This document shows, in pieces, positions 2,722-58,998 of a stretch of 64,000 nt of DNA. Both the position numbers and the translations under genes were made by a program. The notes below the pieces were generated by a model. It saw nothing but the letters and a program-made list of their open reading frames with translations, made no database searches and had not been told where the DNA came from. The stretch lies in NCBI GenBank assembly GCA_005400705.1, contig GCA_005400705.1_4079.1. One strand, given 5' to 3'. Within the stretch, counting starts at the first letter, position 1. Each line of letters starts with the position of its first letter. Source of the DNA: Escherichia coli (GTDB lineage: Bacteria > Pseudomonadota > Gammaproteobacteria > Enterobacterales > Enterobacteriaceae).

Positions 2722-3150
2722 ATGAATATCGAACAAACTATCCGTGAACATTCTTTCTTCGCTCCAGAAACTGGTCGTGTTATTGAGAGCGTCAAAATCG
2801 AAGAACTAATGGTCAATGTTAAATACAAAGAACCAAATGATGAGATTAGCAGTACTTTTTGTGCTCTACGTGCACCATTCCGTAATGAAAAAGCTAAGAA
2901 ACCAGCATATGTTCTTGCCATTGCACTGGGTTGTGTTGTAAAACTTGCAGTTGATGAAAATCTTCTGAATATTAAAGTTGCACCAAGCAATGACGATGAA
3001 AACATTGATTTGAACTTTGATGGTTCTCTTGATGAAGATGTATTTTTCCAACAGTCACTTGTTTACGACTTCCGTACAGTGACACATTCTCACATCAAGT
3101 TCATTAATGAAATGGTTGAGATTGTTGCTGAATACGAAGAATCTCTCTAA
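2722..3150 (+). CDS. hypothetical protein, EExFFQxS-motif paralog family
   Basis: SD AAGGA; C-terminal region LDEDVFFQQSLVYDF. Confidence 0.6.
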   Translation: MNIEQTIREHSFFAPETGRVIESVKIEELMVNVKYKEPNDEISSTFCALRAPFRNEKAKKPAYVLAIALGCVVKLAVDENLLNIKVAPSNDDENIDLNFDGSLDEDVFFQQSLVYDFRTVTHSHIKFINEMVEIVAEYEESL

Positions 3151-3162
3151 GTAAATACAAAA

Positions 3163-3184
3163 GCCTCCATCATGGAGGCTTTTA
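3163..3184 (+). terminator. intrinsic terminator
   Basis: GCCTCCAT-CAT-GGAGGC hairpin followed by TTTTAT. Confidence 0.6.
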
Positions 3185-3203
3185 TCACATAAGGAAATGA
3201 AAT

Positions 3204-3755
3204 ATGATAGACCAAATTAAAATCCTTACAAAGCAAATCACTGATTTTCTTTCTGATAAAGATGGATTTAATACAGAAGTAAAAATGCACGGTGTTAGTG
3301 TTGATGTAATTGCACCAAATGGTAATGTAACAAGTTACGACATGTATGAATTACTTCTTTATACTCTAGCAGTACGTAAACTAGGTAGTGATATTGAACT
3401 CAACATCAATACTGATGAAAGTGGAAATAAAATTTTTGCAATCAACACCAGTGCTAAATTCGATATCAGTACTGAAATTAAAAAAATAAATGAAAGTTTT
3501 ATTGGCTTTAAGCATGAATCAATTCAAAGTGTTTTTATTGGAAAGCAAACTTCTAATAGTGAATGCCCATATTGTGTAATGACTTTATATAAAGATGGAA
3601 ACTGGATGCGTCAAGATTTAGTATTTGCTGAACTTCTGTATGCATTTACACATGAACTTAAAATCGAATTGGACGATAGTGTTTATTGCTTTAAGAAAAT
3701 TCGCAATATAACTAAAGATATACAAACCCAACTTAAAGAATTAAATGATAAATAA
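3204..3755 (+). CDS. hypothetical protein
   Basis: 183 aa ORF with SD AAGGAAA. Confidence 0.55.
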   Translation: MIDQIKILTKQITDFLSDKDGFNTEVKMHGVSVDVIAPNGNVTSYDMYELLLYTLAVRKLGSDIELNINTDESGNKIFAINTSAKFDISTEIKKINESFIGFKHESIQSVFIGKQTSNSECPYCVMTLYKDGNWMRQDLVFAELLYAFTHELKIELDDSVYCFKKIRNITKDIQTQLKELNDK

Positions 3756-3871
3756 ATATACCAGAAATGGTTAACATATCATGTTACTTTCCTCCCTTAC
3801 ATAATAATGATGCGTTATTATATTTTCATTTTGTTCTTATTCCCCTTTTGGTACAAAATCATTTTAGTACT

Positions 3872-3895
3872 GCCCCGTTCTTCGGGGCATTTTTA
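3872..3895 (+). terminator. intrinsic terminator
   Basis: GCCCCG-TTCT-TCGGGGC hairpin followed by ATTTTTATT; lies inside the 5' part of track ORF 3767-4312, so that ORF start is probably too far upstream. Confidence 0.55.
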
Positions 3896-3916
3896 TTATC
3901 TAAAATTCGAGTATAT

Positions 3917-4312
3917 ATGAAAAATAATATTGGAACTTCAATAATTAAACCACTTTCTTATTACCTTGAAAAATTTAGAAGCACAAATGGTAATAAATTT
4001 AATAATATATTTCAGTTCTCTCATAAAGAATATATTACAATTGATCATTTTTCAAAGAAACTAATGTATGTAAATGATAATATTAATATTATTAAATTAT
4101 CATTCGATATTGAGTTAGATAAATTAACATTTACTGAATACATTAATAAAAAAACTTCTTTTTTATGTCAATACAATAGGAAAGTATATAGTAATATTTC
4201 TATGTATCTAAATGATGAATATCACTTTCAACAATCTACAATAGAAGAAGTATTATTCAGTACTGAAGAATTAAAAGAACTATATTACTGGTATAATTAT
4301 TTTACATCTTGA
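3917..4312 (+). CDS. hypothetical protein, EExFFQxS-motif paralog family
   Basis: In-frame ATG downstream of the terminator; motif NDEYHFQQSTIEEV; no obvious SD. Confidence 0.5.
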   Translation: MKNNIGTSIIKPLSYYLEKFRSTNGNKFNNIFQFSHKEYITIDHFSKKLMYVNDNINIIKLSFDIELDKLTFTEYINKKTSFLCQYNRKVYSNISMYLNDEYHFQQSTIEEVLFSTEELKELYYWYNYFTS

Positions 4313-4367
4313 CATTATTGTGGGTTTATCCTACAATACATGATGATGCTGCATTGAGGATAAATTT

Positions 4368-4778
4368 ATGAGTTTAGATTTACACAATGAAATAAAATAT
4401 TTTTTAGATTTGAACATATCAGAATTGAACCACCACGTCAATCATATGACTAGTACTGTATGGTGGTCTAATGAACAAGACGACCCAATTATCCAACTAA
4501 GTGATGAATCGTCAATTATGCGATTTTATAAGATTAATTATAAAAAGAACATCAAGATCACATATGTACCATACAAAAACATACTACTAGTCGAAACACT
4601 TAATCCAAGTTCTTTATTAAAAATCACCGATTTAGATACATTACAAACAAGTGAATCTTTATTCCAACGTTCATTAGTTGATGATCTTGGTGGTATTACT
4701 TTTGAAGATATATTACAATTCAAGAAGATGTATAGTGAATTGTTAGAGATTAAAAACACTTTAGTAATGAGGAATTGA
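4368..4778 (+). CDS. hypothetical protein, EExFFQxS-motif paralog family
   Basis: SD GAGGA; motif SESLFQRSLVDDLGGITFEDI. Confidence 0.6.
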   Translation: MSLDLHNEIKYFLDLNISELNHHVNHMTSTVWWSNEQDDPIIQLSDESSIMRFYKINYKKNIKITYVPYKNILLVETLNPSSLLKITDLDTLQTSESLFQRSLVDDLGGITFEDILQFKKMYSELLEIKNTLVMRN

Positions 4779-4779
4779 T

Positions 4780-5184
4780 ATGGTAAGTTTACTAGATATT
4801 GACAATACCAGTTTAGTGCTGGTGAAAAAAGGTTTAATTCCCAATTCTACAAAAATTGATTATGCTGTTATTGAAACAAATATGGGAAATATCTGGTATG
4901 ATTCAGAAAGTGATATTGTGATTAGCTGTGTAGACAGTGATCGTTCTGAATGTTGTAGAGTCGGGCATGACGGACAATTTGTTTTTGAATTTCGTTATTG
5001 GAAGGACTCAAAATTTCACCAAGAACTGGTTGCATTGTCAAATGAACTGTATACAGAAGAAACTTTCTTCATGGAAAGTACTATTAATAATGTTGGTTCA
5101 GTAACATATGAGCACTATAAAAAAGTATATGCACTATTCAGAGAAGTTATGAAAATTATCAGAACTGCTGAAGGTAACGAATAA
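4780..5184 (+). CDS. hypothetical protein, EExFFQxS-motif paralog family
   Basis: SD GAGGAA; motif TEETFFMESTINNVGSVT. Confidence 0.6.
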   Translation: MVSLLDIDNTSLVLVKKGLIPNSTKIDYAVIETNMGNIWYDSESDIVISCVDSDRSECCRVGHDGQFVFEFRYWKDSKFHQELVALSNELYTEETFFMESTINNVGSVTYEHYKKVYALFREVMKIIRTAEGNE

Positions 5185-5185
5185 C

Positions 5186-5563
5186 ATGACTACTATATAT
5201 GATATTTTGGGTGTTCTGAGTAAAAATATAGATGATGATTTTGTTATTGTTCAAGATACTAGAAATACATTTCAACTACCATTAGGTTCACCAGATAGGT
5301 TAATTTTTAATAGATACTCAAATGAACTAACTTACATCCATGATGGGATTGCAATTGTATCAGTTTCTATAAACGACTATACAATACGATATGTATATGA
5401 CTTCAACAATTATTGTACAAGAATCCACAGTATTGATATTTCCGAAGAGGAACTATTCCAATTGTCAGTGATTGAGAAAAATGTAATAGGAATTACAGAA
5501 ATTAATATTGTTAAAAAAGCATTAAACTATACGAATATAAGAATTAATGGTGGGTGCAGATGA
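5186..5563 (+). CDS. hypothetical protein, EExFFQxS-motif paralog family
   Basis: Motif SEEELFQLSVIEKNVIGITEI. Confidence 0.55.
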   Translation: MTTIYDILGVLSKNIDDDFVIVQDTRNTFQLPLGSPDRLIFNRYSNELTYIHDGIAIVSVSINDYTIRYVYDFNNYCTRIHSIDISEEELFQLSVIEKNVIGITEINIVKKALNYTNIRINGGCR

Positions 5564-6015
5564 ATGTTGACGAAATAAAAAATCATTTTGAAATTGCAAT
5601 GTCATGTGAATTTGACACACAACGTGTTCATGACCCGAAAGAACATATACGCATTTGTTGTGAATTGTCAGATGATTGTAATATTTTTATTGGAAAAACC
5701 TATGACATGATCGATCTTTCATGTATAGATCCATTGGAAAGAAAAACAAAATATTTATATCTGTACAACACAACATCAGATACGATTGCAATACAACTAA
5801 TATCAACCACAACATCCCAAAGTTATTATAACATAACTGAGGTTAGTAGTTTATCGTTAACCGAAGAAGGATTCTTTCAACAATCGCTTATTCGTGAAAT
5901 TGGTGTTAGTTATGATGAGTTAAATGTATTAGTAGATTGTTTCGAAAAATTGAGTACTTTTGTATTATCCCTTTTTAATATACAGTCGCAAAATCCAATG
6001 GTGGTGAAATGCTAA
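5554..6015 (+). CDS. hypothetical protein, EExFFQxS-motif paralog family
   Basis: Motif TEEGFFQQSLIREIGVSYDEL. Confidence 0.6.
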   Translation: MQMNVDEIKNHFEIAMSCEFDTQRVHDPKEHIRICCELSDDCNIFIGKTYDMIDLSCIDPLERKTKYLYLYNTTSDTIAIQLISTTTSQSYYNITEVSSLSLTEEGFFQQSLIREIGVSYDELNVLVDCFEKLSTFVLSLFNIQSQNPMVVKC

Positions 6016-6449
6016 ATCCAAGTAAATTTCTCCACTTACTTTCGATAACATCAATACCGGATCTTACCAGTGAAACTAATGAATATCGTGAAGCTGGGGT
6101 GGTGTCTATGGAACTCGATACATTTGACCACAAATGCTATGTGACATATGACCCACCGCGTTATGGTAAAGAACATTCTTCTTTTATTTTTGTATTCGTA
6201 TACACTGTATATGATAATACAACACTTGATGATGTTTGTATTGACACTTACGAAATTTGTGATAATATCATAACTGATGACAACAATAACTCATTTGATA
6301 TGTCACTATATAACACAGAAGAATCGTTGTTTCAACTTAGTACTGTTATTGATGCACCATCATTAGAAGATATAAAACAATTTCAAGAACATCTTGACGC
6401 AGTTCGTGAGATGTTCTATAATCATTATCCAGAAGTAGAGTTCAATTAA
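6009..6449 (+). CDS. hypothetical protein, EExFFQxS-motif paralog family
   Basis: Motif TEESLFQLSTVIDAPSLEDI. Confidence 0.6.
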   Translation: MLNPSKFLHLLSITSIPDLTSETNEYREAGVVSMELDTFDHKCYVTYDPPRYGKEHSSFIFVFVYTVYDNTTLDDVCIDTYEICDNIITDDNNNSFDMSLYNTEESLFQLSTVIDAPSLEDIKQFQEHLDAVREMFYNHYPEVEFN

Positions 6450-6463
6450 CTAAAGGTAATAAG

Positions 6464-6724
6464 ATGACTAAAGTAGTTCGTAAACGCCACATGATGAACA
6501 TGGATGAATTTCGTACATTTGACAAATATCGTACTATGTTTCGTATGCTTTCACAGGGCCGTCCAATCGTCATTGTAACAGAGAATTACATGTCACCTGA
6601 GATTATGTTTGGTAATTATGAAAAGGTCTTCATGTTGTACGTGAAGCGTGGATTACTTACAATCAAGACATTAGCTGAAGCAACTGATGAAGATATGGAT
6701 GGTGATAATACCTTTACCATGTGA
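6464..6724 (+). CDS. hypothetical protein
   Basis: 86 aa ORF with SD AAGGTAA. Confidence 0.5.
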   Translation: MTKVVRKRHMMNMDEFRTFDKYRTMFRMLSQGRPIVIVTENYMSPEIMFGNYEKVFMLYVKRGLLTIKTLAEATDEDMDGDNTFTM

Positions 6725-6802
6725 GGAAATATATGTCTGAAAAGCCAAAAGAACCATTAGATCGTGATGATGATTTTTATGACGAACGATATGGAGATGA
6801 TG

Positions 6803-7054
6803 ATGAGTGAACATAGTGCTGTGCTTAAAAAGATTTTAAAGGAACTTGATGGTGAGTTTAATGTCACAGAAGAAGAATATCAGCATTGGAAGAAAGGTTT
6901 TGAACAACTAACCGAGTATGATAAAGTGTTCAATATGATTGGTGTAATTAGCCAGTACTTACTTGGTGGAGGACGTGCAAGTGCTTCAATTCTGGCATCT
7001 GCAATCATCTGTACATCACGATGGTGTGATGAAAAAAGTTTGGAAGATTTCTAA
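6803..7054 (+). CDS. hypothetical protein
   Basis: Track ORF 6764-7054; the ATG at 6803 follows GGAG at a good spacing, exact start uncertain. Confidence 0.4.
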   Translation: MSEHSAVLKKILKELDGEFNVTEEEYQHWKKGFEQLTEYDKVFNMIGVISQYLLGGGRASASILASAIICTSRWCDEKSLEDF

Positions 7055-7069
7055 ATAAGATGCTATAAT
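7040..7069 (+). promoter_or_regulatory. sigma70-like promoter upstream of methyltransferase gene
   Basis: TTGGAA - 18 nt - TATAAT. Confidence 0.4.
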
Positions 7070-7106
7070 ATATCAGAGTACCTTAACAATATAAAAAGGA
7101 TTTTAT

Positions 7107-8987
7107 ATGAAACCTATCCGAGTACTATCTCTTTTTAATGGAATGAGTGTAGGATACATGGCATTAAAAGATGCTGGTATCCCTGTTGAAAAATATTATT
7201 CATCCGAAATTGACAAATTTGCTATAGCTGAATCCCAAGCTAACTTCCCCGATATAATCCAATTGGGTGATGTAACTAGATGGAGAGAATGGGATATTGA
7301 ATGGGATAAGATAGATCTACTGATGGGTGGTTTTCCATGCTTCCCAGCAGGAACTATGATAATGACAAATAAAGGTCATAAAGATATAAAAGATATAAAA
7401 ATTGGTGATATGGTTCTTACACACACTGGACAGTACCAAAAAGTATTGAGTACTGGTGTTAAAAAGGCTCCCACTCGTATTATTACAGGTCAAGGTCACC
7501 TTCCAATTGAGTGTACCGATAATCATCCATTTTGGAGTAGGGAACGTCTAGCCAATAAATGGAATAATCAACGCCGAAGATATGATTCTGTGTTTTCTGA
7601 ACCGCAATGGGTAAATGCTATAGATCTTACTAAACAAAGTTATATTTGTAATGTTAAAAATATTACACATAATACAGTAAGTGATAAAGATGAAAAATAT
7701 TGGTATTTTGTTGGTCGTTTTATGGGTGATGGATGTGCTAGTGTATCTAATAACAAATACAGTATTACTATTGTAGATTCATTAGATAAAGTTGATGAAT
7801 TGAAAAAATGTTTTGATGATTTTGGATACAAATACACATTAGCTATTAAAGATAATCATGTAAGATGTGATATATATAGCAAAAAGCTTTATGATGAATT
7901 AATATGTATTGGGCATAAATCACAAAACAAATGTTTACCACCTGAAATATTCAATGAAACTATCAATAACAAAGAAGCATTTATTAAAGGATACATGGAT
8001 GCAGATGGTTGTGAGGATAAACACAATAAAAAATACAAATTTACCACCACAAGTTATAAAATAGTTCTTGGTATGCAACAGTTAATCTTAGATACTTATC
8101 AACGTCATTGTACTATTAGTCAAACTGTTCCAAAAACAAAAAAATATATAAAAAATAAGTTGGTTAATCAGCTTCCGTATTGGAATGTTCATTTTAGCTA
8201 TAATAAAATTAAAAGAGATGATGTAATATATGATGAAATTTATATATGGAATCGTGGTGTAAAAAGTAATGTACCAACCGGAGAATGGAAAACCGTTTAC
8301 AATATTGAAGTTGCAGTAGATAACACATATACGGCGAACAATATTGTAGTTCATAACTGCCAAGCGTGGTCAGTTGCAGGTAAACAGGGTGGAATAAATG
8401 ATCCTCGTGGTATGTTATTCCATACAATGGTTGATATTTACCAGCACATAAAAAGTCTCAATCCAGACTTGAAAGTACTGTTCGAGAATGTTAAAATGAA
8501 AGAAGATTTCAAGCAATACATTAATAGTGTTCTTGAGATGACACCAGTACTGATAAATTCCCAGCATTATACGCCTCACTTCAGGCAGAGATATTACTGG
8601 TACAGTACTGATAAACTTTTTATACCACCTGCATTATCAAATGCACCTAAACTTCAAGATATTATTGAAGATGGTTGGTACACTGACAGAACCGCTTCGT
8701 ACTGTATAGATGCTAACTATTTTAAGGGTGGTGATTGTAACCAGTACTTTAATAAATCAAGAAGACAAATTGTTTTCAAAGAACCTGATATCGATAGGGA
8801 TTTCCTTATTGAACATGGTAAGCGAAATGTGGACTATCGTCATTTAACAGTACAAGAGTGTTGCATGTTGCAAGGAATTGATGTAAACTACTTCAAAGTT
8901 AGTAGTTCAACACAAGCATACAAAATGCTTGGGAATGGATGGACTATGCCAGTTATATCACACTTACTACGAGATATATTCTTTTGA
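7107..8987 (+). CDS. DNA (cytosine-5)-methyltransferase, intein-containing precursor
   Basis: C5-MTase motif I FNGMSVG, split motif IV GGFP / CQAWSVAG, motif VI ENV (VLFENVKM); a 340 aa insertion lies between them. Confidence 0.8.
   Translation: MKPIRVLSLFNGMSVGYMALKDAGIPVEKYYSSEIDKFAIAESQANFPDIIQLGDVTRWREWDIEWDKIDLLMGGFPCFPAGTMIMTNKGHKDIKDIKIGDMVLTHTGQYQKVLSTGVKKAPTRIITGQGHLPIECTDNHPFWSRERLANKWNNQRRRYDSVFSEPQWVNAIDLTKQSYICNVKNITHNTVSDKDEKYWYFVGRFMGDGCASVSNNKYSITIVDSLDKVDELKKCFDDFGYKYTLAIKDNHVRCDIYSKKLYDELICIGHKSQNKCLPPEIFNETINNKEAFIKGYMDADGCEDKHNKKYKFTTTSYKIVLGMQQLILDTYQRHCTISQTVPKTKKYIKNKLVNQLPYWNVHFSYNKIKRDDVIYDEIYIWNRGVKSNVPTGEWKTVYNIEVAVDNTYTANNIVVHNCQAWSVAGKQGGINDPRGMLFHTMVDIYQHIKSLNPDLKVLFENVKMKEDFKQYINSVLEMTPVLINSQHYTPHFRQRYYWYSTDKLFIPPALSNAPKLQDIIEDGWYTDRTASYCIDANYFKGGDCNQYFNKSRRQIVFKEPDIDRDFLIEHGKRNVDYRHLTVQECCMLQGIDVNYFKVSSSTQAYKMLGNGWTMPVISHLLRDIFF
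7338..8357 (+). other. intein with LAGLIDADG homing-endonuclease domain, inside the methyltransferase gene
   Basis: Begins with Cys (CFPAGT...), ends ...VVHN followed by Cys; two LAGLIDADG-type motifs (YFVGRFMGDGCAS, FIKGYMDADGCED); the +1 residue is the PCQ catalytic Cys. Confidence 0.75.
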
Positions 8988-9511: not shown

Positions 9512-10027
9512 ATGCCAATTCCTTATGTTAAAATTATTAATAATATTCTCGATTCATGGGAAGATGTTATTACTGGTAAAAAGCAACCATCACCAGTACA
9601 TGCTTTATCTGGGAAACTTCAATTCAGAATGTCAAACCAAACTGAAACATTTAATAATCATGATATTTGCATTACATTAAAAACACCTATCAGTATTGTA
9701 ATTAAAAAAAATAAAGATGATGAATTGACATTATCTATTGGTCGTGATAAAATCATTTTAAGTAATTTGTCTGAAGAAGAATTCTTTCAAAGAAGTACTA
9801 TTATCGATATGAAAGATTTCACATATGAATCATTGGTTGAACTCAATACACGTTTTAACGATATTCAGGAACGATTGCGACCAATTCTTCGTATCGAAGA
9901 AGAAGCCTGGATTGAAAGTATTAGGAAGATGCAAGAAATGTTGAAAGAAAATATTAACAATCTGGGTAAAGCTACAATGGAATTTGGTAAAACTTTTAAA
10001 CTGAACTTTTCAAAGGATCGTAAATGA
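9512..10027 (+). CDS. hypothetical protein, EExFFQxS-motif paralog family
   Basis: ATG after the terminator (track ORF starts 9485); motif SEEEFFQRSTIIDM. Confidence 0.55.
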   Translation: MPIPYVKIINNILDSWEDVITGKKQPSPVHALSGKLQFRMSNQTETFNNHDICITLKTPISIVIKKNKDDELTLSIGRDKIILSNLSEEEFFQRSTIIDMKDFTYESLVELNTRFNDIQERLRPILRIEEEAWIESIRKMQEMLKENINNLGKATMEFGKTFKLNFSKDRK

Positions 10028-10479
10028 AAATTGATAATTTGATTCATGTTTTAGGATCTTTACATAAAATATTATCACATCTACATGAGATAAAGAAACT
10101 GGGATTTAACATCTCAAATTCAATTGAAACTACATTTAAATATCAATCAATTACTGGTGATGGTTATTACATAATCGAATATACTTATGAAACCGATCCA
10201 GACTTCTATCCTCTTACGTTGAGAATTTATCCAACAAATCCGAGAGGAATTCACGACATATCATCAATTTCACTTGATCCAGATGGTGAAACGAGTATTG
10301 AATACAATAATGATTCAAAACCAGAATTTTACATTGATGATATTAAAATGATGTTCAACGATGAATATGTGTTCCAGCAAAGTACTGTGCATGATGTTGG
10401 AAGTACTAATGGACAATTTTGGAATACATGTTATTATCATATGATTGAAATTTGTAAATTACTAAAAGGCGATGATTAA
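10024..10479 (+). CDS. hypothetical protein, EExFFQxS-motif paralog family
   Basis: SD AAGGA; motif NDEYVFQQSTVHDVG. Confidence 0.6.
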   Translation: MKIDNLIHVLGSLHKILSHLHEIKKLGFNISNSIETTFKYQSITGDGYYIIEYTYETDPDFYPLTLRIYPTNPRGIHDISSISLDPDGETSIEYNNDSKPEFYIDDIKMMFNDEYVFQQSTVHDVGSTNGQFWNTCYYHMIEICKLLKGDD

Positions 10480-10862
10480 TGAAATACAGCATTGAAGTAC
10501 ATTACACTACAGGGGACACTGAAAATTGTTATGACGTTCTTAATACAATTGATATTCAATGGTCTTCTAAAGAGGAAGCAGTTGCTGCTTTACAGTGCCT
10601 AAAAGAGCATTGGGTGTTTTATATGAAGCAAGATAATTGCTATACTAAAGAACACGAAACTATCGTTGAAAATGCTAAACAAAAAGAGTGGTTTGACCCA
10701 ATATCACCAGAATATTCATTCTTGGTTAAAGTTGGCGATGTGACAGTTCCATTACGAACACCGTGGAACGGCTACTTTGAAACTCTTCATAATGCACGAG
10801 TTGTCGCTGTTGATAATCCTGAGCAAATCGATTTCGATTCATTGGACTGGAAAAAACTATGA
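10479..10862 (+). CDS. hypothetical protein
   Basis: 127 aa ORF, overlapping stop/start with neighbours. Confidence 0.5.
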   Translation: MKYSIEVHYTTGDTENCYDVLNTIDIQWSSKEEAVAALQCLKEHWVFYMKQDNCYTKEHETIVENAKQKEWFDPISPEYSFLVKVGDVTVPLRTPWNGYFETLHNARVVAVDNPEQIDFDSLDWKKL

Positions 10863-15682: not shown

Positions 15683-16075
15683 ATGACTGAATCAGAACTA
15701 CACGAAATGATAGATTTCATTTATGAAATGGTACAAGATAAAAATAACATCAATACAATTGCATCAGGCCCAAGACAAATTGGTAACCAAATAACATATT
15801 CTTTGTCCTTATGGTTACACCCGTGCATTAAGGTTGATTGTTTGTATTTCCTTCCTGATATTGATGCTTATTATTTTGTCAATCATGATGCATTAATGAA
15901 ACCACATAATCGTCCAGTTGATGATACCTTTGTGACACACCCATTTTACCTGGCTGATTCCGAAGAAGATGAGTTTCAAAAGAACACAACGTTAAGCCCA
16001 GGTGAAATTTGCATCCCTTACGTACTTAAAGATAAAATGAATCACATCACAGAAGTTATGAAAACATGCTGGTAG
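15683..16075 (+). CDS. hypothetical protein, divergent member of EExFFQxS family
   Basis: SD AAGGAAA; motif variant DSEEDEFQKNTT. Confidence 0.5.
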   Translation: MTESELHEMIDFIYEMVQDKNNINTIASGPRQIGNQITYSLSLWLHPCIKVDCLYFLPDIDAYYFVNHDALMKPHNRPVDDTFVTHPFYLADSEEDEFQKNTTLSPGEICIPYVLKDKMNHITEVMKTCW

Positions 16076-16123
16076 ATGCAATGAAACTCTGATATAATAC
16101 AAATAATGATAATAGGAGGATAT

Positions 16124-16343: not shown

Positions 16344-16832
16344 ATGCCAATTCGTGGTGTACCAGAACCATTAATGGAAGTTATTAAGCATGTTCGCATT
16401 GGAGATCGAGAAGTTAATCTTCGCCGTAATAACATTTATTACTTTAAAACTTCAGAAATGAGTTCTGTACAGATTGTCATTGGTACATCTATTAAGATTA
16501 CTCGTGTACTTGATGGTAGTACTGATTTCGTTGAATATAATGTACTTACTAACAAAGTAATACACACATATAAATGGAGTGGGTATAAAACTATTAAGTA
16601 TGAGTTTGATGTTGCTAGAACTGAAGAAGAACGATTTATGTTAAGTACTATCAATCCAGCAAACTACCCTGACCTTGATACATTTTTGCTAATTTTAAAA
16701 CTGTATAATGAAGCAAATGGGAAAGCGAAGGAGTATGATAGAATTATGTATGAACGCAAAAAAGAACGTGCTCAGAAAAGTTATGATCTTTATGATAACC
16801 CATATGTAAAATATAATAAGGGGAGAAAATGA
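16344..16832 (+). CDS. hypothetical protein, EExFFQxS-motif paralog family
   Basis: ATG after AAGGAG (track ORF 16284-16832); motif TEEERFMLSTINP. Confidence 0.55.
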   Translation: MPIRGVPEPLMEVIKHVRIGDREVNLRRNNIYYFKTSEMSSVQIVIGTSIKITRVLDGSTDFVEYNVLTNKVIHTYKWSGYKTIKYEFDVARTEEERFMLSTINPANYPDLDTFLLILKLYNEANGKAKEYDRIMYERKKERAQKSYDLYDNPYVKYNKGRK

Positions 16833-17233
16833 ATAACGAAGTTCAAATTATCATAACTCCACCTATACAAAGTCTTGATGTATCTATTAGTGATTTTTTA
16901 GAAAAATATTATGAATGGTTTAATAATGATAATACCATTTATAATCATTCATTACCAGATGGTTTCGTGGAGCTTATCGAATTAAATTCAAAATCACTAT
17001 ACTTCTGTGTTGAATACAATGATTATATGACAGATGAAGCTTATCGCTTTCGTTGTACATTGTATCCGAATTATTTTTCAATAGGTTATAAAGATTACCA
17101 GTACTGTACCACTAACTATAGTGTTGAGGAAGAATTTCAGTACAATTTACTTTATCCTGATTTAGATTATACGATTGCAGTACTGTTGACTAAAATCATG
17201 GATTTTTATAAAGATAAATATAATGCAGCCTAA
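16829..17233 (+). CDS. hypothetical protein, divergent member of EExFFQxS family
   Basis: SD GGGGAG; motif variant VEEEFQYNLLYPDLDY. Confidence 0.5.
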   Translation: MNNEVQIIITPPIQSLDVSISDFLEKYYEWFNNDNTIYNHSLPDGFVELIELNSKSLYFCVEYNDYMTDEAYRFRCTLYPNYFSIGYKDYQYCTTNYSVEEEFQYNLLYPDLDYTIAVLLTKIMDFYKDKYNAA

Positions 17234-17945: not shown

Positions 17946-17950
17946 TAAGA

Positions 17951-18049
<99 letters not shown>

Positions 18050-18069
18050 TATAATAAAGGTGATTTAAT

Positions 18070-18285: not shown

Positions 18286-18286
18286 A

Positions 18287-18469: not shown

Positions 18470-18483
18470 ATAAGGAATATATT

Positions 18484-20187: not shown

Positions 20188-20577
<390 letters not shown>

Positions 20578-21861: not shown

Positions 21862-22347
<486 letters not shown>

Positions 22348-23489: not shown

Positions 23490-23906
23490 ATGAAATACAA
23501 CATTGTTAAAATGGTGAACTATGTATTAAAAAACAACAAATGGTCACTCCTGGATGAATATATAGATGATATTGGTGAAGTTAGAGTATTTTGCTATGAT
23601 CCATATTTGAATCAAACCACAGATTTGAGTAAATGTTTTAATATTTTTCTTGGTTATGAATTCAATAATCATTTTTATTCATTTGATGTGTATTTTGAAA
23701 AAGTTATATTCAGAAGTTATAAATGTGATAATCAAGATTATGATGAATCAATTGAATTGAATGTTAACGATATTGATACTGAAGAAAAATTCTTCCAGTA
23801 CTGCCTCGTTAACAACACATTAGGATTAACATTTGATGACATTAGTGCTATCCTTAAAGTTCAAAGATTGATTCCAGAAGAGGTATTAAATCCGTTAAAT
23901 GACTAG
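23490..23906 (+). CDS. hypothetical protein, EExFFQxS-motif paralog family
   Basis: Motif TEEKFFQYCLVNNTLGLTFDDI. Confidence 0.6.
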   Translation: MKYNIVKMVNYVLKNNKWSLLDEYIDDIGEVRVFCYDPYLNQTTDLSKCFNIFLGYEFNNHFYSFDVYFEKVIFRSYKCDNQDYDESIELNVNDIDTEEKFFQYCLVNNTLGLTFDDISAILKVQRLIPEEVLNPLND

Positions 23907-24264
23907 TCTAATAGTACGTATAATGCAAGATGTTTGTAATAACCTTTATACAGGCAATTTTGACGATCCGAACATAAAAATATTATGTTATGATGGTTTT
24001 ACAATGGTACATCCAGCCTATTCAAATAATATCTACGTAGCATATACAGGTGAAAATCTATTATATCAATTTGATATATATAGTACAATGACAAAGATAA
24101 TTTTGGATGCATCTAAACCAGCAATCTTTATTGCTTCTCATGATTACCATTACACTGAAGAATCACTATTTCAGTACTCAATGATTAATGACATTGGTGG
24201 GTTGACATTGGATGAGGTTAATGCTATACTAGCTGTCTCACGTTTGGTTAAAACCCACAATTAG
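23899..24264 (+). CDS. hypothetical protein, EExFFQxS-motif paralog family
   Basis: Motif TEESLFQYSMINDIGGLTLDEV. Confidence 0.6.
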   Translation: MTSLIVRIMQDVCNNLYTGNFDDPNIKILCYDGFTMVHPAYSNNIYVAYTGENLLYQFDIYSTMTKIILDASKPAIFIASHDYHYTEESLFQYSMINDIGGLTLDEVNAILAVSRLVKTHN

Positions 24265-24974: not shown

Positions 24975-25403
24975 GTGAATGCAATGAGTTATTTGTTTAC
25001 TTTAATTGATAAGTATGTTGACATTGTATACCGTCAAGTTTGTAGTGATACGTTTGAAACAAAAAACCCAATTAGAGATGGCATTTTTGATGTTGTCGTT
25101 GGATCATTTTTGAATGGATACACAGAGACATTATACAACAGTAATAATATTTTTATTTCAGTTCAATCCAGACATACATCAGACTATGCTGTTAGCATTG
25201 ATATTTGGGAAAATAATATAGAAATAGATATAACGGAACATACTAACATTCATGTTGATGATACATTTAATCAATTAACTGAAGAAATGTACTTGCAGTT
25301 GAATTTTGTACATGATCTTACAAATATCAGTTATGATACATTAAGGAAAATATGTTTTCTTAGTGGGGTGATCCGTAGTAATATGAGTAAGGATGGGAAG
25401 TGA
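24975..25403 (+). CDS. hypothetical protein, EExFFQxS-motif paralog family
   Basis: Motif TEEMYLQLNFVHDLTNISYDTL. Confidence 0.55.
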   Translation: MNAMSYLFTLIDKYVDIVYRQVCSDTFETKNPIRDGIFDVVVGSFLNGYTETLYNSNNIFISVQSRHTSDYAVSIDIWENNIEIDITEHTNIHVDDTFNQLTEEMYLQLNFVHDLTNISYDTLRKICFLSGVIRSNMSKDGK

Positions 25404-25821
25404 AATGTTAAAAATTCCACCTAAGTCGTTAACACATCTTATTGAATGTGGTGTAATATTTTCCGAAGGTGATACCTCATCATACACATTGGTCGATGAA
25501 CCTTATAATTTTTCATACCAATCTTATAAAAATAATTCTAAAATTTCTTGTAGATATGCTGAAAACATATTAATAGATGTTTCGTTACATAATGTTCCGA
25601 AATTTTACATTGATATCTTTGGTGATTCTTTGACAATTCGAACATATGATTATTTTATTAATAAAGACCTCTTGAGTCTTCCAATTGAACATGATACTAT
25701 AGATTCAGAGATGTTCTTTCAGCTATCAACAGTTTACGATTTACAGGGTTTAACTGTTGAGCAGTTGAATGGAATATTTGAGATTTCACGAAACATACGA
25801 AGCAGGAATAAAAATGTCTAA
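25393..25821 (+). CDS. hypothetical protein, EExFFQxS-motif paralog family
   Basis: Motif DSEMFFQLSTVYDLQGLTVEQL. Confidence 0.6.
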   Translation: MGSEMLKIPPKSLTHLIECGVIFSEGDTSSYTLVDEPYNFSYQSYKNNSKISCRYAENILIDVSLHNVPKFYIDIFGDSLTIRTYDYFINKDLLSLPIEHDTIDSEMFFQLSTVYDLQGLTVEQLNGIFEISRNIRSRNKNV

Positions 25822-26224
25822 TATTTTAAATGAAAAAACAGTTGATGTTGTTATTGGTGTTCTTAACACCGCAACTTCATTTCAGAAGAAACACAGTGTT
25901 GTATACTTTGGTGAAGATTGTTGGCTGAACTATACTAATAATTCGTTTATAATTCGTGTAGAGGCTGATGATATTGGATTAACCGTTCAGGTAGGATGTG
26001 CCAAAACTGACAAACAAATCACTGTCATTGTTGATAAACTTACGTCTTCTTTTTATGATAGTATAGATGATTGTGAACACTATAGTTCAACATTTTATGA
26101 TACAGAAGAAGAACATTTTATGGAAAGTACTGTTCAAGAGTTAGCTATTCCATATAAGCTAATGAAAGCCGTGAGTGATTTAATTTTAAAATATAAAAAA
26201 ATAGGAGTTACTAATGCAATTTAA
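25814..26224 (+). CDS. hypothetical protein, EExFFQxS-motif paralog family
   Basis: Internal ATG after AGGAA (track ORF 25769-26224); motif TEEEHFMESTVQEL. Confidence 0.55.
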   Translation: MSNILNEKTVDVVIGVLNTATSFQKKHSVVYFGEDCWLNYTNNSFIIRVEADDIGLTVQVGCAKTDKQITVIVDKLTSSFYDSIDDCEHYSSTFYDTEEEHFMESTVQELAIPYKLMKAVSDLILKYKKIGVTNAI

Positions 26225-45879: not shown

Positions 45880-46452
45880 ATGAATCGTAAAGGTCGTTTT
45901 AAAGTATCAAAAAAGAACAAAAGTTCTAGGTTTAAACCTATTGTTTTAACAGTTAAATCTAACAAAGAATTAACTGCACTTAGTAAAAAGATAATTTCAT
46001 CTAAGATTGAAGTATCATACGTAAATTCATTAAAATATATGAATGTCAAACCACTGGACCAACTCATTTCACTTATATTTGAACGTAATGATTTTGAGAT
46101 ATCAGTAGATGATTATAGAGCCTATAATGCTGGTTTCATTAATGTTACTTGTAATAAAAAACTAACTGAGTTGGAAAATTTGTCATGTATAATAAATCTA
46201 GATAAAGGTGTAGTGAAGTACCATTTTGTACATTTCACTAATATCAATAATGGAATGGGTGTACAATCCAGACCTATAGTGCCTACGTGTGATGTTACTA
46301 AATTAGCAAAGCTCAATGATGAAGAATATTTTCAAGAAAGCATTGTAACTGAGCATTTAGATGATATAATAGCTACTTACAAAGAATGCATATGGGTGTT
46401 GAATGCTATAAAACCTAAATTGTGTTTAATGAATATTGTTCGTGATTTATGA
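45880..46452 (+). CDS. hypothetical protein, EExFFQxS-motif paralog family
   Basis: ATG after GAGGAAA (track ORF 45856-46452); motif NDEEYFQESIVTEHL. Confidence 0.55.
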   Translation: MNRKGRFKVSKKNKSSRFKPIVLTVKSNKELTALSKKIISSKIEVSYVNSLKYMNVKPLDQLISLIFERNDFEISVDDYRAYNAGFINVTCNKKLTELENLSCIINLDKGVVKYHFVHFTNINNGMGVQSRPIVPTCDVTKLAKLNDEEYFQESIVTEHLDDIIATYKECIWVLNAIKPKLCLMNIVRDL

Positions 46453-51075: not shown

Positions 51076-51414
51076 ATGGAACAATATTTTGAATTAATAA
51101 ACAAAGTATCATTTTATGTAGTATCTTTGGTTTGGGTGTATTATATGTTTTGCTACATTATTGCATTCTTCCGATACACTACTTTATATGAACGTATCTA
51201 CTATGATGCCCCAATTTCATTCTTGATGTTTTGTGCATGTACGTGGGGAATATTAGAAGTACTGATATGTGGGTATAGTACTGATGAATTAAATCTGGTA
51301 TCGGTGTTGACTGGGTTTTCATTTGTTGTTATGATAGCTGCCGTTCCAGTATGGTTGTTCTTTGGACTAGTTCATCGCATTGATATATGGCGTTCTAATA
51401 TCCCTGAAAAGTAA
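51076..51414 (+). CDS. small multi-TM protein, array A member 1
   Basis: About 112 aa, 3-4 TM segments, FFRYTTLYERIYYDAPI after TM1, C-terminal RSNIPEK. Confidence 0.55.
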   Translation: MEQYFELINKVSFYVVSLVWVYYMFCYIIAFFRYTTLYERIYYDAPISFLMFCACTWGILEVLICGYSTDELNLVSVLTGFSFVVMIAAVPVWLFFGLVHRIDIWRSNIPEK

Positions 51415-51423
51415 GGATTGGTA

Positions 51424-51765
51424 ATGATTTATTACACTAACATGTTTGCCTATGCTGTTGCTTGCATTTACATTGTTTACTTCTTATTCGGTGGAGTACT
51501 GTGCTTCTTTAAGTACAAAACGTTGTTCAACCGAATGTACCCAAATCATCCAATTGTAGTTGTACTTTTGATTCTTTCAGTTTCTCAAATAATCGTTGAA
51601 ACTACAATGGGTATCAGTAGTGTACATTATAGTTTTGGTACTATAGTAATTATTACTATGCTTATTGCATACATTTTAGTACTTGGATATGGTATCTTTG
51701 GTAATATTGGTATGAAAATGTATCATCGAATTAAAACATTACGTGATAATCTACCGGAGCGTTGA
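51424..51765 (+). CDS. small multi-TM protein, array A member 2
   Basis: ATG after AAGGA (track ORF begins at a TTG at 51418); FFKYKTLFNRMYPNHPI; C-terminal LRDNLPER. Confidence 0.55.
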   Translation: MIYYTNMFAYAVACIYIVYFLFGGVLCFFKYKTLFNRMYPNHPIVVVLLILSVSQIIVETTMGISSVHYSFGTIVIITMLIAYILVLGYGIFGNIGMKMYHRIKTLRDNLPER

Positions 51766-51766
51766 T

Positions 51767-52111
51767 ATGTATAATTTGAACCTAATCTCATATATTATAA
51801 CAACACTGTTTACATTCTATGCCTTTGTTGGTATAATCCTACTGTACTTTAAATTTTATAAAGTGTTTAACCGTTTCTATCCTTCAATGGAGAATGAGTT
51901 TTTCTTTGTGTTGTACGTATGTTACACATTCATGGCTACATGTTTCACTGTAGTCGATGGTGTCATCGGCATTAAAACTGCTGCACCAAATGGTAGTACG
52001 CTGGTTGCATTTATTCTTACCGGATTCCTTGCAACTTATATTGCCTTCATTGCAACATGGTCAGTGGTTGAATTTCTCTTGCGACTACGAAAGAATATGC
52101 CGAATCGATAG
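51767..52111 (+). CDS. small multi-TM protein, array A member 3
   Basis: ATG after GGAG (track ORF 51743-52111); YFKFYKVFNRFYPSMEN; C-terminal LRKNMPNR. Confidence 0.55.
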   Translation: MYNLNLISYIITTLFTFYAFVGIILLYFKFYKVFNRFYPSMENEFFFVLYVCYTFMATCFTVVDGVIGIKTAAPNGSTLVAFILTGFLATYIAFIATWSVVEFLLRLRKNMPNR

Positions 52112-56539: not shown

Positions 56540-56874
56540 TGGAGTACTTTATTGATTTACTGCCGTGGTATATGAAAGTTAGTACTTTGTACTATATTAT
56601 TAGTGCTGGATTCTACTTTCTGATGTGGTTCTTTAAACGACCAATTTCAGTATTCATCGCTGATAACATGCTGCAATTAAAATTACACGCATGGTTTGGT
56701 ATGGCGATGATTATGCCTATTATTCACTACTCAATGATTAGTAGAGGTTTCCGTTCTAATGGTGAACCAATTGTATTAGTATTCTATTGGGGTTCAACTA
56801 TTGCATATGTAAGTTTGTTGTTGTTCCCAGTCGTTCATAAGTTACGTGCTAAAATTCCTGATGCGAGGTACTAA
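56536..56874 (+). CDS. small multi-TM protein, array B member 3
   Basis: FFKRPISVF after TM1; C-terminal KLRAKIPDARY. Confidence 0.55.
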   Translation: MMEYFIDLLPWYMKVSTLYYIISAGFYFLMWFFKRPISVFIADNMLQLKLHAWFGMAMIMPIIHYSMISRGFRSNGEPIVLVFYWGSTIAYVSLLLFPVVHKLRAKIPDARY

Positions 56875-57188
56875 TGGATATAGTAACATTGATTTACACG
56901 TTGTATTCATTCTATTTCATTATGTGTTGGGTTGGATTTTTATTTGTACTCAAGATGTTTGATTATGTTGAAAAACAGATAAAAGAATTTTGTATTCCTT
57001 TTATCGGTTCAACCATTATTAGTGTTTCTTGTGTGTATTTTTTGGTTTTTGATCCACCAGATAACACTGCAATGATTGACTTGATGTTACTACCAACAAC
57101 TGTTACTTTTTTATGTAGTCTGATGCCGCCGATTAGCCGTGGACTAACAGAATTTAGACGCAATCAAAAGCGTAAACGAGGGATGTAA
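56874..57188 (+). CDS. small multi-TM protein, array B member 4
   Basis: Hydrophobic, basic C-terminus RRNQKRKRGM. Confidence 0.5.
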   Translation: MDIVTLIYTLYSFYFIMCWVGFLFVLKMFDYVEKQIKEFCIPFIGSTIISVSCVYFLVFDPPDNTAMIDLMLLPTTVTFLCSLMPPISRGLTEFRRNQKRKRGM

Positions 57189-57556
57189 TGGAAATTGCTC
57201 TTATTATCTTAACTGCTATGCTGTTTATTAGTACTGTGGTTATAATTGGTAAATTCTTTTGTGTATCATTTTTAGAAACGGTATACGATGAAATTGCTGA
57301 TGATTATGAATTACAAGCCGGATTTTTCATTACGTATTGGCTTAGTTTATTTTGTCTAGTCATTGCTTGGATTTTACATATCTTTAAATGGGGTATGGTA
57401 GACGGTGATCCTATTATGGCAATTATTGTTCTAGTGTTTGGTATCCTTGGTGGTGCAGTGCATAATCTAATGGTTATCTGGCAAACTGTTCAATATGTTT
57501 TGGTTCCCTATTTCGAAAAGATGCACAGTACAATTAAAAAACGTAAACGAGGTTAG
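57188..57556 (+). CDS. small multi-TM protein, array B member 5
   Basis: Hydrophobic, basic C-terminus KKRKRG. Confidence 0.5.
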   Translation: MEIALIILTAMLFISTVVIIGKFFCVSFLETVYDEIADDYELQAGFFITYWLSLFCLVIAWILHIFKWGMVDGDPIMAIIVLVFGILGGAVHNLMVIWQTVQYVLVPYFEKMHSTIKKRKRG

Positions 57557-57557
57557 T

Positions 57558-57920
57558 ATGAACGGGATAGAATTATCTTTCGTTGGTCAATTACTAGTAA
57601 TGGCGTATACATTTATCTTCTCACTGAATGCATTCGTGTGCATTGGGAAGTACTTCCATAAGCGACCATTATCAAATATATATGATGTAATCCAAAAGAG
57701 ATATAGTCCAGCATATACTGTGTTGGGTACAGTATTCAATTTTGGTTTTATTGTATTAATAATTGGACTGTTCACATCCTCTTTGAATACAATAACCTTC
57801 GGTCTTATGATATGTTCATTGGTATTAGCCGTAATTATATGTTGTTTAGTACTACACCTTGTGATACTATTATATATAAAGATCTCTGAAATCCACCAAC
57901 GTTTGGGTATGAGGAAATAA
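57558..57920 (+). CDS. small multi-TM protein, array B member 6
   Basis: ATG after GAGG (track ORF 57495-57920); YFHKRPLSNIYD after TM1. Confidence 0.5.
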   Translation: MNGIELSFVGQLLVMAYTFIFSLNAFVCIGKYFHKRPLSNIYDVIQKRYSPAYTVLGTVFNFGFIVLIIGLFTSSLNTITFGLMICSLVLAVIICCLVLHLVILLYIKISEIHQRLGMRK

Positions 57921-57921
57921 T

Positions 57922-58293
57922 ATGAGTTACCGTGAGATATTTTCCATTATTTCAATTATTATGTTCAGTACTGGAACACTGGTATGGTTATTATATTTCT
58001 TCTGTATTAATCCAGTGTATAATATGTTATGTAATATTAAATCAAGTGCCGGATATATCACTTTTATGGTCTTTATGGGATATTATTGTCTAAGCATTTT
58101 AGGTGTTGTTTTGGTTGTTATATTTGATGTGGGGCCAAATAGTGATGGTATGGAAATACATGAATTAATAACCATGTTTGGATGTATGATACCAACAGCA
58201 CTACTGTTTGTAGCTACTGGTAGTGGATTGATAAAATTATATAATTATTTAAAATCCATTCATAATTCCATTCATAATAAGCGTATGTCATAA
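57922..58293 (+). CDS. small multi-TM protein, array B member 7
   Basis: SD GAGGAAA; hydrophobic, C-terminal basic tail. Confidence 0.5.
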   Translation: MSYREIFSIISIIMFSTGTLVWLLYFFCINPVYNMLCNIKSSAGYITFMVFMGYYCLSILGVVLVVIFDVGPNSDGMEIHELITMFGCMIPTALLFVATGSGLIKLYNYLKSIHNSIHNKRMS

Positions 58294-58335
58294 TAAAAAA
58301 TCCAGTACTATTAAGTACTGGATGTATAAGGAGTT

Positions 58336-58998
58336 ATGATGAAATCAAAATTAGGTTTGTTTTATAAAAACTATTTTGTTAAACAACGTAAATTTATAAA
58401 AAAATATTTCTCTGGTGAGAAGTCTAGTCCTATAATTTTTAAAAGACCAAGTTATAATACTTACTTAGCTTGTGCTAAACAGTCTAAGAAATTTATTACT
58501 CTTTTAAATAAAAACAAAATTAAAGCTTCTTATGTTGAAACGAGAAGAAACTCATCAATAACTCCTGGTGATTTTATTGAGTACGGATGTTTCAATATTA
58601 AGTATAATGATAATACATACTTTATGGATATTGATTGTAATACATCCAATCTTTTTAACATTGTAGTAAATCCATTAAAACAATATAATGTTTATGGTGA
58701 TTCTATTATCAAATTAATCAAAAACAAAGATGGCTTTGATTTTGAAATAAATGTTTTAGATGATAATTTTGACGAAGTACCCGTAAACCCTGAAATCTGT
58801 GATATTTTAAACAGTTTAAAAGGTAGTACCTACAATATATCATCTGATTTAATGTTTCAGTACTCATTAATCCATAAAGATATTGAAAAGTATATTGAAT
58901 GCTCCAGAATTTTGAATTTTCTCTATGATGAATTTAAAAAGAGTTCTAAAATAACTGCATACACTTTGTACAATATTCCTAAAATGGTGAATCTTTAA
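58336..58998 (+). CDS. hypothetical protein, divergent member of EExFFQxS family
   Basis: SD AAGGAG; motif variant SSDLMFQYSLIHKDIEKYIE; last plus-strand gene before the minus-strand block. Confidence 0.5.
   Translation: MMKSKLGLFYKNYFVKQRKFIKKYFSGEKSSPIIFKRPSYNTYLACAKQSKKFITLLNKNKIKASYVETRRNSSITPGDFIEYGCFNIKYNDNTYFMDIDCNTSNLFNIVVNPLKQYNVYGDSIIKLIKNKDGFDFEINVLDDNFDEVPVNPEICDILNSLKGSTYNISSDLMFQYSLIHKDIEKYIECSRILNFLYDEFKKSSKITAYTLYNIPKMVNL

Follow-up and report, generated by a model that had tools for sequence, protein, structure and literature searches.

A Multigene Family of Small Proteins with a Conserved C-Proximal Helical Module in RaK2-like Jumbo Phages

In a stretch of 64,000 nucleotides deposited under Escherichia coli (contig GCA_005400705.1_4079.1, hereafter the window), 19 genes encode small, otherwise dissimilar proteins that carry a short motif, E-E-x-[FY]-F-Q-x-S-[TL]-[VI], near the C-terminus. 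Our analyses indicate that these genes very probably constitute a genuine family with a common fold, in which a helix is followed by a six-stranded sheet and two further helices. The window is DNA of an Asteriusvirus jumbo coliphage, with 95-97% nucleotide identity to 121Q, PBECO4, G17 and phAPEC6 in megablast comparisons, and the greatest coverage is provided by phage UE-S1 (96% of the window at 91% identity). Most jumbo-phage genes have no assigned function (83% in phAPEC6), and all of the genes of interest are labelled 'hypothetical protein' in the G17, phAPEC6, UE-S1 and RaK2 records.

A Family Defined by Profiles

The family was first proposed by a reader of the sequence alone (hereafter the original prediction), and all 19 genes for which it listed the motif are present at the coordinates given. 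Its starts at 3917, 9512, 16344, 25814 and 45880 match the coding sequences (CDS) annotated in G17 and the corresponding database proteins, and not the longest open reading frame (ORF). These firm members are given below, together with support from the motif regular expression and from hidden Markov models (HMMs) and with their partners in the related phages RaK2 and CBB.

2722..3150 (+), 142 aa, DEDVFFQQSLV; HMM member; RaK2 reciprocal-best partner, 47.6% identity over 145 aa
3917..4312 (+), 131 aa, DEYHFQQSTI; second AlphaFold model
4368..4778 (+), 136 aa, SESLFQRSLV; RaK2 reciprocal-best partner; 11/12 sigma-70 match just upstream
4780..5184 (+), 134 aa, EETFFMESTI; RaK2 reciprocal-best partner, 28% identity over 142 aa
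5186..5563 (+), 125 aa, EEELFQLSVI; regular expression and HMMs
5554..6015 (+), about 151-153 aa, EEGFFQQSLI; RaK2 reciprocal-best partner
6009..6449 (+), 146 aa, EESLFQLSTV; regular expression and leave-one-out HMM
9512..10027 (+), 171 aa, EEEFFQRSTI; basic C-terminal extension; regular expression, HMM and PHROG cross-hits
10024..10479 (+), 151 aa, DEYVFQQSTV; RaK2 reciprocal-best partner, 25% identity over 138 aa
10859..11302 (+), 147 aa, EEMYFQQLTV; RaK2 reciprocal-best partner
16344..16832 (+), 162 aa, EEERFMLSTI; basic C-terminal extension; RaK2 reciprocal-best partner, 32.5% identity over 126 aa
19376..19729 (+), 117 aa, EEEYFQMSTV; CBB reciprocal-best partner; 11/12 sigma-70 match at 19317-19344
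23490..23906 (+), 138 aa, EEKFFQYCLV; BLASTP E = 1e-12 to 23899
23899..24264 (+), 121 aa, EESLFQYSMI; first AlphaFold model
24975..25403 (+), 142 aa, EEMYLQLNFV; regular expression and leave-one-out HMM
25393..25821 (+), 142 aa, SEMFFQLSTV; regular expression, BLASTP link and leave-one-out HMM
25814..26224 (+), 136 aa, EEEHFMESTV; RaK2 reciprocal-best partner, 30% identity over 130 aa
40326..40844 (+), 172 aa, EENVFQQSLI; leave-one-out E = 0.0017; iterated HMM
45880..46452 (+), 190 aa, DEEYFQESIV; basic N-terminal extension; weak in the leave-one-out test (E = 0.11)

The regular expression [DES]E..[FYL][QM]..[STLVMFIC][VI] matches 18 ORFs, every one of them on the + strand, as compared with a mean of 0.18 and a maximum of 2 in residue shuffles of the + strand ORFs; the - strand has no match. 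The motif is therefore about 100 times as frequent as chance would predict and is restricted to the coding strand. Gene 2722, which has a one-residue variant, is the 19th member. Leave-one-out HMMs place 18 of the 19 above every reversed or shuffled decoy and above every non-member ORF. Moreover, iterated HMMs seeded with the window alone, and then with the window plus RaK2 and CBB, recover exactly the 19 ORFs and no decoy. An HMM built from the members was the check that had been suggested for the claim of a genuine paralogous family generated by repeated duplication, and this claim is borne out. Pairwise BLASTP, in contrast to the profiles, ties together only 23490, 23899, 25393 and 4368, and the family is thus detectable by profiles only.

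The lack of significant BLASTP scores for most pairs of members, along with N-terminal parts that cannot be aligned, is what might be expected of an artefact, wherein unrelated proteins fit a low-complexity pattern accidentally or the motif is merely a translated DNA repeat. We give practically no credence to this explanation, which is refuted by the motif statistics and HMMs above, by the common fold of two AlphaFold models and the persistence of orthologues across genera (see below), and by codon variation. Codons within the motif vary freely at synonymous positions, with Phe encoded by TTT or TTC, Gln by CAA or CAG, and the conserved Ser by AGY in nine members and by TCN in seven. Conservation is therefore exerted at the level of protein, and a DNA-level repeat or gene conversion as the source of the motif was rejected on the basis of this codon usage.

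Several dimensions of the family as originally described require adjustment. It is indeed large, but it comprises about 12-15% of the genes (19-23 of roughly 155 CDS in the whole window) and not a fifth. The firm members span 117-190 aa rather than 120-220 aa, and the motif is located 32-54 residues from the C-terminus rather than 30-45, except in 9512 (84 residues) and 16344 (69 residues), which have basic extensions. The tandem arrays at 2722-6449, 9512-11302 and 23490-26224 are real, but they are broken by non-members at 3204-3755, 10479-10862 and 24274-24749. Neighbouring members frequently share a few bases at their ends, an arrangement known from operons with translational coupling. Family members are acidic, with a median isoelectric point of 4.8 versus 6.0 for other ORFs. 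The only basic or near-neutral proteins among firm and candidate members are 9512, 16344, 45880 and the candidate 58336, the latter two having basic N-terminal extensions. The C-terminal extensions of 9512-10027 and 16344-16832 are rich in Lys and Arg and have similar endings (...NFSKDRK and ...YNKGRK).

A Conserved Two-Helix Module

The conserved unit is a module of 40-45 residues with two helices, [TS]-E-E-x-[FY]-F-Q-x-S-[TL]-[VI]-x-D ... [TS]-x-E-[DE], followed by an amphipathic helix. If the motif is removed, leave-one-out HMMs of the downstream sequence still rank members high, whereas those of the upstream sequence rank them at random. Among 179 non-redundant members the consensus (percent occurrence) is T62/S20, E93, E91, x, F37/Y34, F99, Q88/M12, x, S91, T60/L35, V49/I37, x, D64/N22, [FLI], x, x, [LIF], [TS], [YLF], E57/D18, [DE] and then the amphipathic helix, these percentages being somewhat inflated since the set was chosen by the profile itself. 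The N-cap position is occupied by T, S, N or D and is followed by two Glu residues, and the second helix opens in a similar fashion with [TS]-x-E-[DE]. Positions 18, 22 and 26 of the module, which correspond to i, i+4 and i+8, are free to vary, and the invariant Phe, [TL] and [VI] lie on the side of the helix opposite this stripe. Gln is exchanged only for Met, and Ser only for small residues.

By comparison, the 90-110 residues N-terminal of the module cannot be aligned, even profile versus profile. BLAST separates the pre-motif parts of 211 members into 119 components, and hhalign comparisons among 17 subfamily profiles of these parts gave results like those of reversed controls, with only one pair at 54% probability. 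Full-length homology is thus beyond the reach of sequence methods, and structure prediction was therefore used.

In the PHROGs database, members match their own PHROG from end to end and cross-hit the PHROGs of other members at the C-terminal module (E = 1e-3 to 1e-6). Member PHROGs, all of which are without function, include phrog_17453, 24941, 24510, 21500, 23322, 30548, 36084, 34619 and 33313 as well as others. In PHROGs they remain numerous small families that are not united, and neither a superfamily nor a motif or fold is recorded for them.

A Common Predicted Fold

Evidence for the fold comes from two members modelled with AlphaFold, with further paralogues reached by Foldseek matches in BFVD. 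The AlphaFold2 model of 23899-24264 was built from an alignment with orthologues and paralogues (predicted local distance difference test, pLDDT, 88.7; predicted template modelling score, pTM, 0.82) and has a helix at residues 4-15, a strand-rich region at 26-79, a helix at 87-96 that coincides exactly with EESLFQYSMI, and a helix at 104-114. The model of 3917-4312, whose N-terminal part is unrelated to that of 23899, has a pLDDT of 85.1 and a pTM of 0.80. It comprises a helix at 13-21, six strands, helices at 94-98 and 100-109, the latter corresponding to the motif, and a helix at 116-130. In both models the motif segment is the part predicted with the highest confidence (block pLDDT 90-96). 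The original prediction had considered that differing folds would speak against a family, but the two modelled members have the same topology. Because this topology recurs in members with unrelated N-terminal sequences, the members are most likely to share a fold, and the earlier view that only the motif is held fixed is too narrow, since the two-helix module and the whole fold are retained.

When Foldseek was run against BFVD, whose models were built independently, matches with a probability of about 1 and template modelling (TM) scores of 0.45-0.76 were obtained to Asteriusvirus paralogues and to proteins of CBB (E = 0.006) and Yersinia phage fHe-Yen9-04 (E = 0.007). No match above the curated cut-off was obtained in a Pfam scan of ten members with E values up to 1, and NCBIfam gave a single chance match (E = 0.045) for all 19 members. 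Searches of the same 19 against the defence components of PADLOC-DB (E up to 0.1) and a sequence profile search of the PDB returned no match. Polo-box domains (six strands and one helix) and p32/Mam33 (gC1qBP; a helix, seven strands and two helices per protomer) resemble the family in architecture only, with Z scores below 6 over 70-82 aligned residues, less than 15% identity and no Pfam match. Hence, the predicted fold has no convincing solved relative and is apparently new.

The models also bear on the proposal that the motif is a signal, either a protease site (E-x-x-Y-x-Q|S, as for the NIa protease of tobacco etch virus, TEV) or a capsid-targeting sequence as in T4 internal proteins. The consensus of TEV-type sites is E-x-x-Y-x-Q|S/G, and EEEYFQMS and DEEYFQES conform to the E-x-x-Y-x-Q pattern. 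Likewise, T4-type internal proteins resemble the family in that a short conserved sequence is carried by otherwise unrelated small proteins from variable phage loci. The T4 signal, however, is N-terminal and is cleaved as it brings the protein into the head, whereas the motif studied here is an internal helix 32-84 residues from the C-terminus, and the family is absent from the 62 proteins of the phAPEC6 virion. A cleavage site is similarly difficult to reconcile with a helix predicted in the folded core. We know of no Gln-specific 3C-like protease in these phages, although no search for one was made. Both forms of signal were rejected on these grounds and seem very improbable.

Distribution, Age and Selection

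An exhaustive HMMER search with a 53-column profile of the module against 1.84 billion representative proteins (E up to 0.001) identified 160 clusters. About 156 of these (at 50% identity) are standalone proteins of 60-220 aa, mostly 110-200 aa, in which the module occupies the same C-proximal place. Member 45880 is the best match of this search (P0010, E = 3.9e-11). The long proteins P0065, P0078, P0158 and P0160 are false positives due to internal repeats. No domain fusions were found among the roughly 156 clusters, and the ten longest proteins carry no Pfam domain above the gathering cut-off. A further search for fusions with a 104-sequence alignment of the module returned four hits among 96 candidates, which is an uninformative yield.

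A syntenic stretch of 50 kb in RaK2 carries at least 14 members by the family HMM, and up to 19 if weaker hits are included, while CBB carries 4-6; no decoy scored below E = 0.07 in the scan of these two phages. In addition, a 20 kb piece of a metagenomic contig has ten members around an intein-bearing Dcm methylase, arranged as in the window. No member occurs in the 50 kb that lie upstream in 121Q, where genes for replication, nucleotide metabolism and structural proteins are located. A tblastn search of 50,697 phage records with the consensus module, a short query of low sensitivity, found RaK2-like jumbo phages only, and a search with a single member found Asteriusvirus only. Ten clusters that were sampled derive from contigs of 2-362 kb, half of them at least 36 kb, with uninformative names. 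All traceable members are from RaK2-like jumbo phages, to which the family appears to be confined, and many copies are found per genome in the same region of small genes. Every RaK2-like genus examined has members.

For eleven of the 19 members, a collinear reciprocal-best partner exists in RaK2. Identities range over 25-48%, and several of the partners match over the full length. As a benchmark, the sigma factors of the two phages are 44% identical. Most of the duplications are therefore older than the split of the genera. All 19 members have syntenic orthologues in UE-S1, with a median protein identity of 88.7% compared to 90.6% for 80 neighbouring genes (not significant). The median ratio of nonsynonymous to synonymous substitution rates (dN/dS) in this comparison is 0.21 for members and 0.12 for neighbouring genes (p = 0.01). 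These values indicate that every paralogue has been maintained as a gene and that purifying selection on it is relaxed only mildly. The 'rapid divergence' originally invoked is consequently misleading, given that the divergence is ancient rather than ongoing and that the paralogues have all been kept in UE-S1 and have a dN/dS of about 0.2.

No description of the family, its signature or its fold was found in the databases searched, in the papers searched on 121Q, PBECO4, RaK2, CBB, phAPEC6, Sharanji and fEgEco12, in a paper on comparative jumbo-phage genomics or in a 2026 review of jumbo phages. The RaK2 paper states that about 10% of the gene products of that phage are paralogues. Multigene families in large viruses are already known. 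Recognition of one superfamily unites dozens of orphan PHROGs and about 156 clusters, with a defined signature and a predicted fold.

Genomic Setting

The window has a G+C content of about 33%, and nearly all of its genes lie on the + strand. Among the other genes of the region are those for a sigma factor, a Dcm methylase and homing endonucleases, along with seven tRNA genes. The first 40 kb of the window (1-40000) contain nine perfect TTGACA-N16-17-TATAAT sites and eleven further sigma-70 sites with 11 of 12 matches; examples lie at 11774, 13634, 14181, 22626, 29942, 31788, 33150, 38093 and 38441. All of these are on the + strand, which is the gene strand, whereas only about 0.06 perfect sites per strand are expected by chance according to our calculation from base composition. 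Two of the 11/12 sites are directly 5' of family members (4309-4337 and 19317-19344). The consensus sites point to transcription of the region by host RNA polymerase, and thus to early expression. This interpretation draws also on the relative PA5oct, in which the early class consists of blocks of small uncharacterised genes and infection is rifampicin-sensitive.

Possible Functions

The reading that we favor is that these are diversified early binder proteins in which the motif is the keystone of the fold, a proposal that we consider about evenly poised between right and wrong. The family is an old multigene set whose products are absent from virions, mostly acidic and small (about 120-190 aa), and host-type promoters probably drive their synthesis early in infection. 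In the predicted fold the motif forms the first C-terminal helix, which opens with a Thr/Ser N-cap and two Glu residues and continues with F-Q-x-S-[TL]-[VI], and together with the following helix it makes a conserved hairpin. We propose that the hairpin is the keystone of the fold and lies packed on one face of the six-stranded antiparallel meander sheet, in which case the sheet and its loops would be free to change beyond recognition. Each paralogue might thereby bind a different host or competitor protein via its own variable surface, with binding resulting in stoichiometric inhibition or modulation during takeover or counter-defence. This mechanism is proposed somewhat more tentatively than the general reading.

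A keystone role is favored because the N-cap, the variable stripe at i, i+4 and i+8 and the swap of Gln for Met alone all fit a packed helix. In particular, a Gln that is replaced only by Met is more consistent with packing than with hydrogen bonding to a partner. A structural keystone therefore explains the helix pattern at least as well as a shared binding partner does. Host takeover or counter-defence had been raised in the original prediction, and the setting fits this suggestion. Perfect sigma-70 promoters, tRNA genes and a Dcm methylase mark the region as early-type, and the virion proteome of phAPEC6 lacks family members.

Several considerations nevertheless weigh against the favored reading. 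There is no experimental or homology pointer to any target or activity, and burial of the conserved Glu, Gln, Ser and Asp residues is argued from periodicity alone. Near-invariant polar residues in proteins that have otherwise drifted past what even profiles detect are more typical of functional motifs than of purely structural ones. The alignment used for the second model included paralogues, such that a slight bias toward a common fold is conceivable. Finally, early expression is deduced from consensus promoters and the relative PA5oct and not from the timing of Asteriusvirus infection.

The invariance of polar residues favors instead an adaptor model, which is nearest to the view of the original prediction. 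In this model all members would use the hairpin to dock on a single partner, which might be a phage protein or a host machine (a protease, RNA polymerase or the ribosome), and the variable sheet would pick the clients. Such an arrangement would account for the extreme conservation of E93, E91, F99, Q88, S91 and D64/N22 across about 156 clusters whose remaining sequence is unalignable, and for a module whose position within these standalone proteins never changes. Interference with host proteostasis is also plausible in that 121Q has genes annotated as DnaJ-like and as a protease adaptor of ClpS type, although the link to the ClpS-like gene is pure conjecture. However, the features of a packed helix noted above apply equally here, and the segment belongs to the folded core, where both models have their highest confidence. 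We regard the adaptor model as a minor but serious contender.

Alternatively, the conserved polar residues could line a common pocket for a small molecule, for example an immune signalling nucleotide, with the proteins acting as sponges like Tad or Acb. Proteins that are small, acidic, standalone and probably early, and that have strictly conserved polar residues, would suit this role, and the same region holds other genes of a counter-defence type, such as the Dcm methylase and the tRNA genes. It is difficult, though, to see why a phage would need twenty paralogues with the same pocket and unrelated surfaces elsewhere, and the separate conservation of each paralogue across genera implies separate functions. 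A ligand sponge is thus quite improbable.

Roughly every seventh or eighth gene of the 64 kb early-type region belongs to the family, and if these proteins are target-specific inhibitors, they should offer a wealth of new activities in host takeover or anti-defence. The boldest version of the favored reading, which is possible but on balance doubtful, is that the phages carry a repertoire of binders on an undescribed fold. A near-invariant hairpin would underlie a hypervariable sheet, and each of 20-odd paralogues per genome would neutralise a different host defence or housekeeping protein. Among viruses of bacteria, such a repertoire would correspond to the multigene families with which poxviruses and African swine fever virus (ASFV) evade immunity, and would provide a natural scaffold for engineered binders.

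Comparison with Known Systems

The MGF360/505 proteins of ASFV and the Bcl-2-like proteins of poxviruses are multigene families that serve host manipulation. As in the phage family, tandem arrays of paralogues occupy a non-structural region of a very large viral genome, and the fold is kept while the sequence has diverged almost completely. Nevertheless, there is no relation in sequence or fold, the host in the present case is bacterial, and a near-invariant helix is found only in the phage family. In F-box and SOCS-box proteins a helical box that stays fixed is joined to substrate-binding domains that vary, and these adaptors, like PRANC proteins, are reminiscent of the phage family in having a short conserved helical box beside a variable target-binding part in expanded families. 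The phage helices, in contrast, apparently lie within a single compact domain and do not form a separable box, and no homology was found. A further likeness is to the SUKH/Imm-type polyimmunity arrays of bacteria, in which small single-domain alpha+beta proteins are likewise encoded in tandem. The proteins of those arrays diverge fast, and each neutralises a different toxin.

Divergent Variants

The original prediction included five divergent variants in the family, none of which is linked to it by PHROGs. Four related loci were searched with each variant by phmmer, and family members, which constitute 46 of the 696 ORFs in these loci, were counted among the ten best weak hits; 30 control ORFs mostly gave 0-1.

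20188..20577 (+), 129 aa, shortened motif DEADEFQKRTV; remote member; weak hits 7/10 members (p = 4e-7); HMM E = 0.002-0.12, borderline, slightly ahead of the best decoys
16829..17233 (+), 134 aa, VEEEFQYNLL; probable remote member; weak hits 4/10 members (p = 0.003); missed by HMMs
15683..16075 (+), 130 aa, SEEDEFQKNTT; possible remote member; weak hits 3/8 members (p = 0.012); missed by HMMs
58336..58998 (+), 220 aa, DLMFQYSLIHKD, without EE; possible remote member; weak hits 3/10 members (p = 0.02); HMM E = 0.005-0.017, barely ahead of the best decoy
21866..22123 (+), 85 aa; membership unsupported, with no FQ and a protein that stops right after the supposed motif

Membership of 20188 is well supported by this test, and the evidence for 16829, 15683 and 58336 is only suggestive. 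The inclusion of 21866 finds no support, as neither HMMs, PHROGs nor the weak-hit test (0 family members) connects it to the family. The tally is hence 19 firm members, one well-supported remote member, three possible members and one unsupported candidate. In 15683, 16829 and 20188 the motif is one residue shorter (E-[ED]-E-F-Q), and the layout of helix, strand-rich region and helix is the same. In UE-S1 the counterpart of 15683 (locus 15699-16092) is broken into two ORFs, with 80 and 50 residues aligned, which could reflect either a frameshift (pseudogene) or a sequencing error.

Other Features of the Region

The Dcm-type cytosine methylase (7107-8987, +) is a protein of 626 aa interrupted by an intein that contains a LAGLIDADG homing endonuclease (Pfam domains DNA_methylase, Hint_2, LAGLIDADG_3 and Intein_splicing). 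An 861 bp gene for the methylase without an intein is annotated in G17 and phAPEC6, and the long form is present in UE-S1 and in the metagenomic relative (5361-7256).

The tRNA genes (17973-23012, +) are Gly-UCC, Ser-UGA, Ser-GCU, Ser-ACU, Met-CAU, Asn-GUU and Thr-UGU. The tRNA-Ser with anticodon ACU (21499-21590) is unusual and has a length of 92 nt; in the family motif, the invariant Ser is most often encoded by AGT (8 of 19 members). A second, smaller set of paralogues is located among the tRNA genes (17769-19305, +), where the ORFs at 17769, 18269, 18980 and 19141 encode proteins of about 55-66 aa with mutual BLASTP E values of about 1e-6 to 1e-19. Three adjacent ORFs at 51076, 51418 and 51743 (51076-52111, +; 112-122 aa) are also weak paralogues of one another (BLASTP E = 3e-8 and 2e-4).

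The sigma-70-family factor of the phage (34745-35710, +) is 99% identical in most Asteriusvirus records, but only 84%, 73%, 59% and 36% (EJP2) identical in others. This variability within a genus suggests mosaic replacement in the region. Just upstream of the equivalent of the window in 121Q (33944-35623), genes annotated as IF3-like, as a ClpS-type protease adaptor and as DnaJ-like lie side by side, so that the phage itself encodes factors of host proteostasis and translation. At the other end of the window, a run of large paralogous genes on the - strand (59679-63987) encodes proteins of 418, 392, 369 and 225 aa that are called RCC1-like or 'DNA condensation' proteins in relatives, and proteins so annotated are present in the phAPEC6 virion proteome. 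Fragments at 58979-59414 resemble the remnants of another copy of such a gene.

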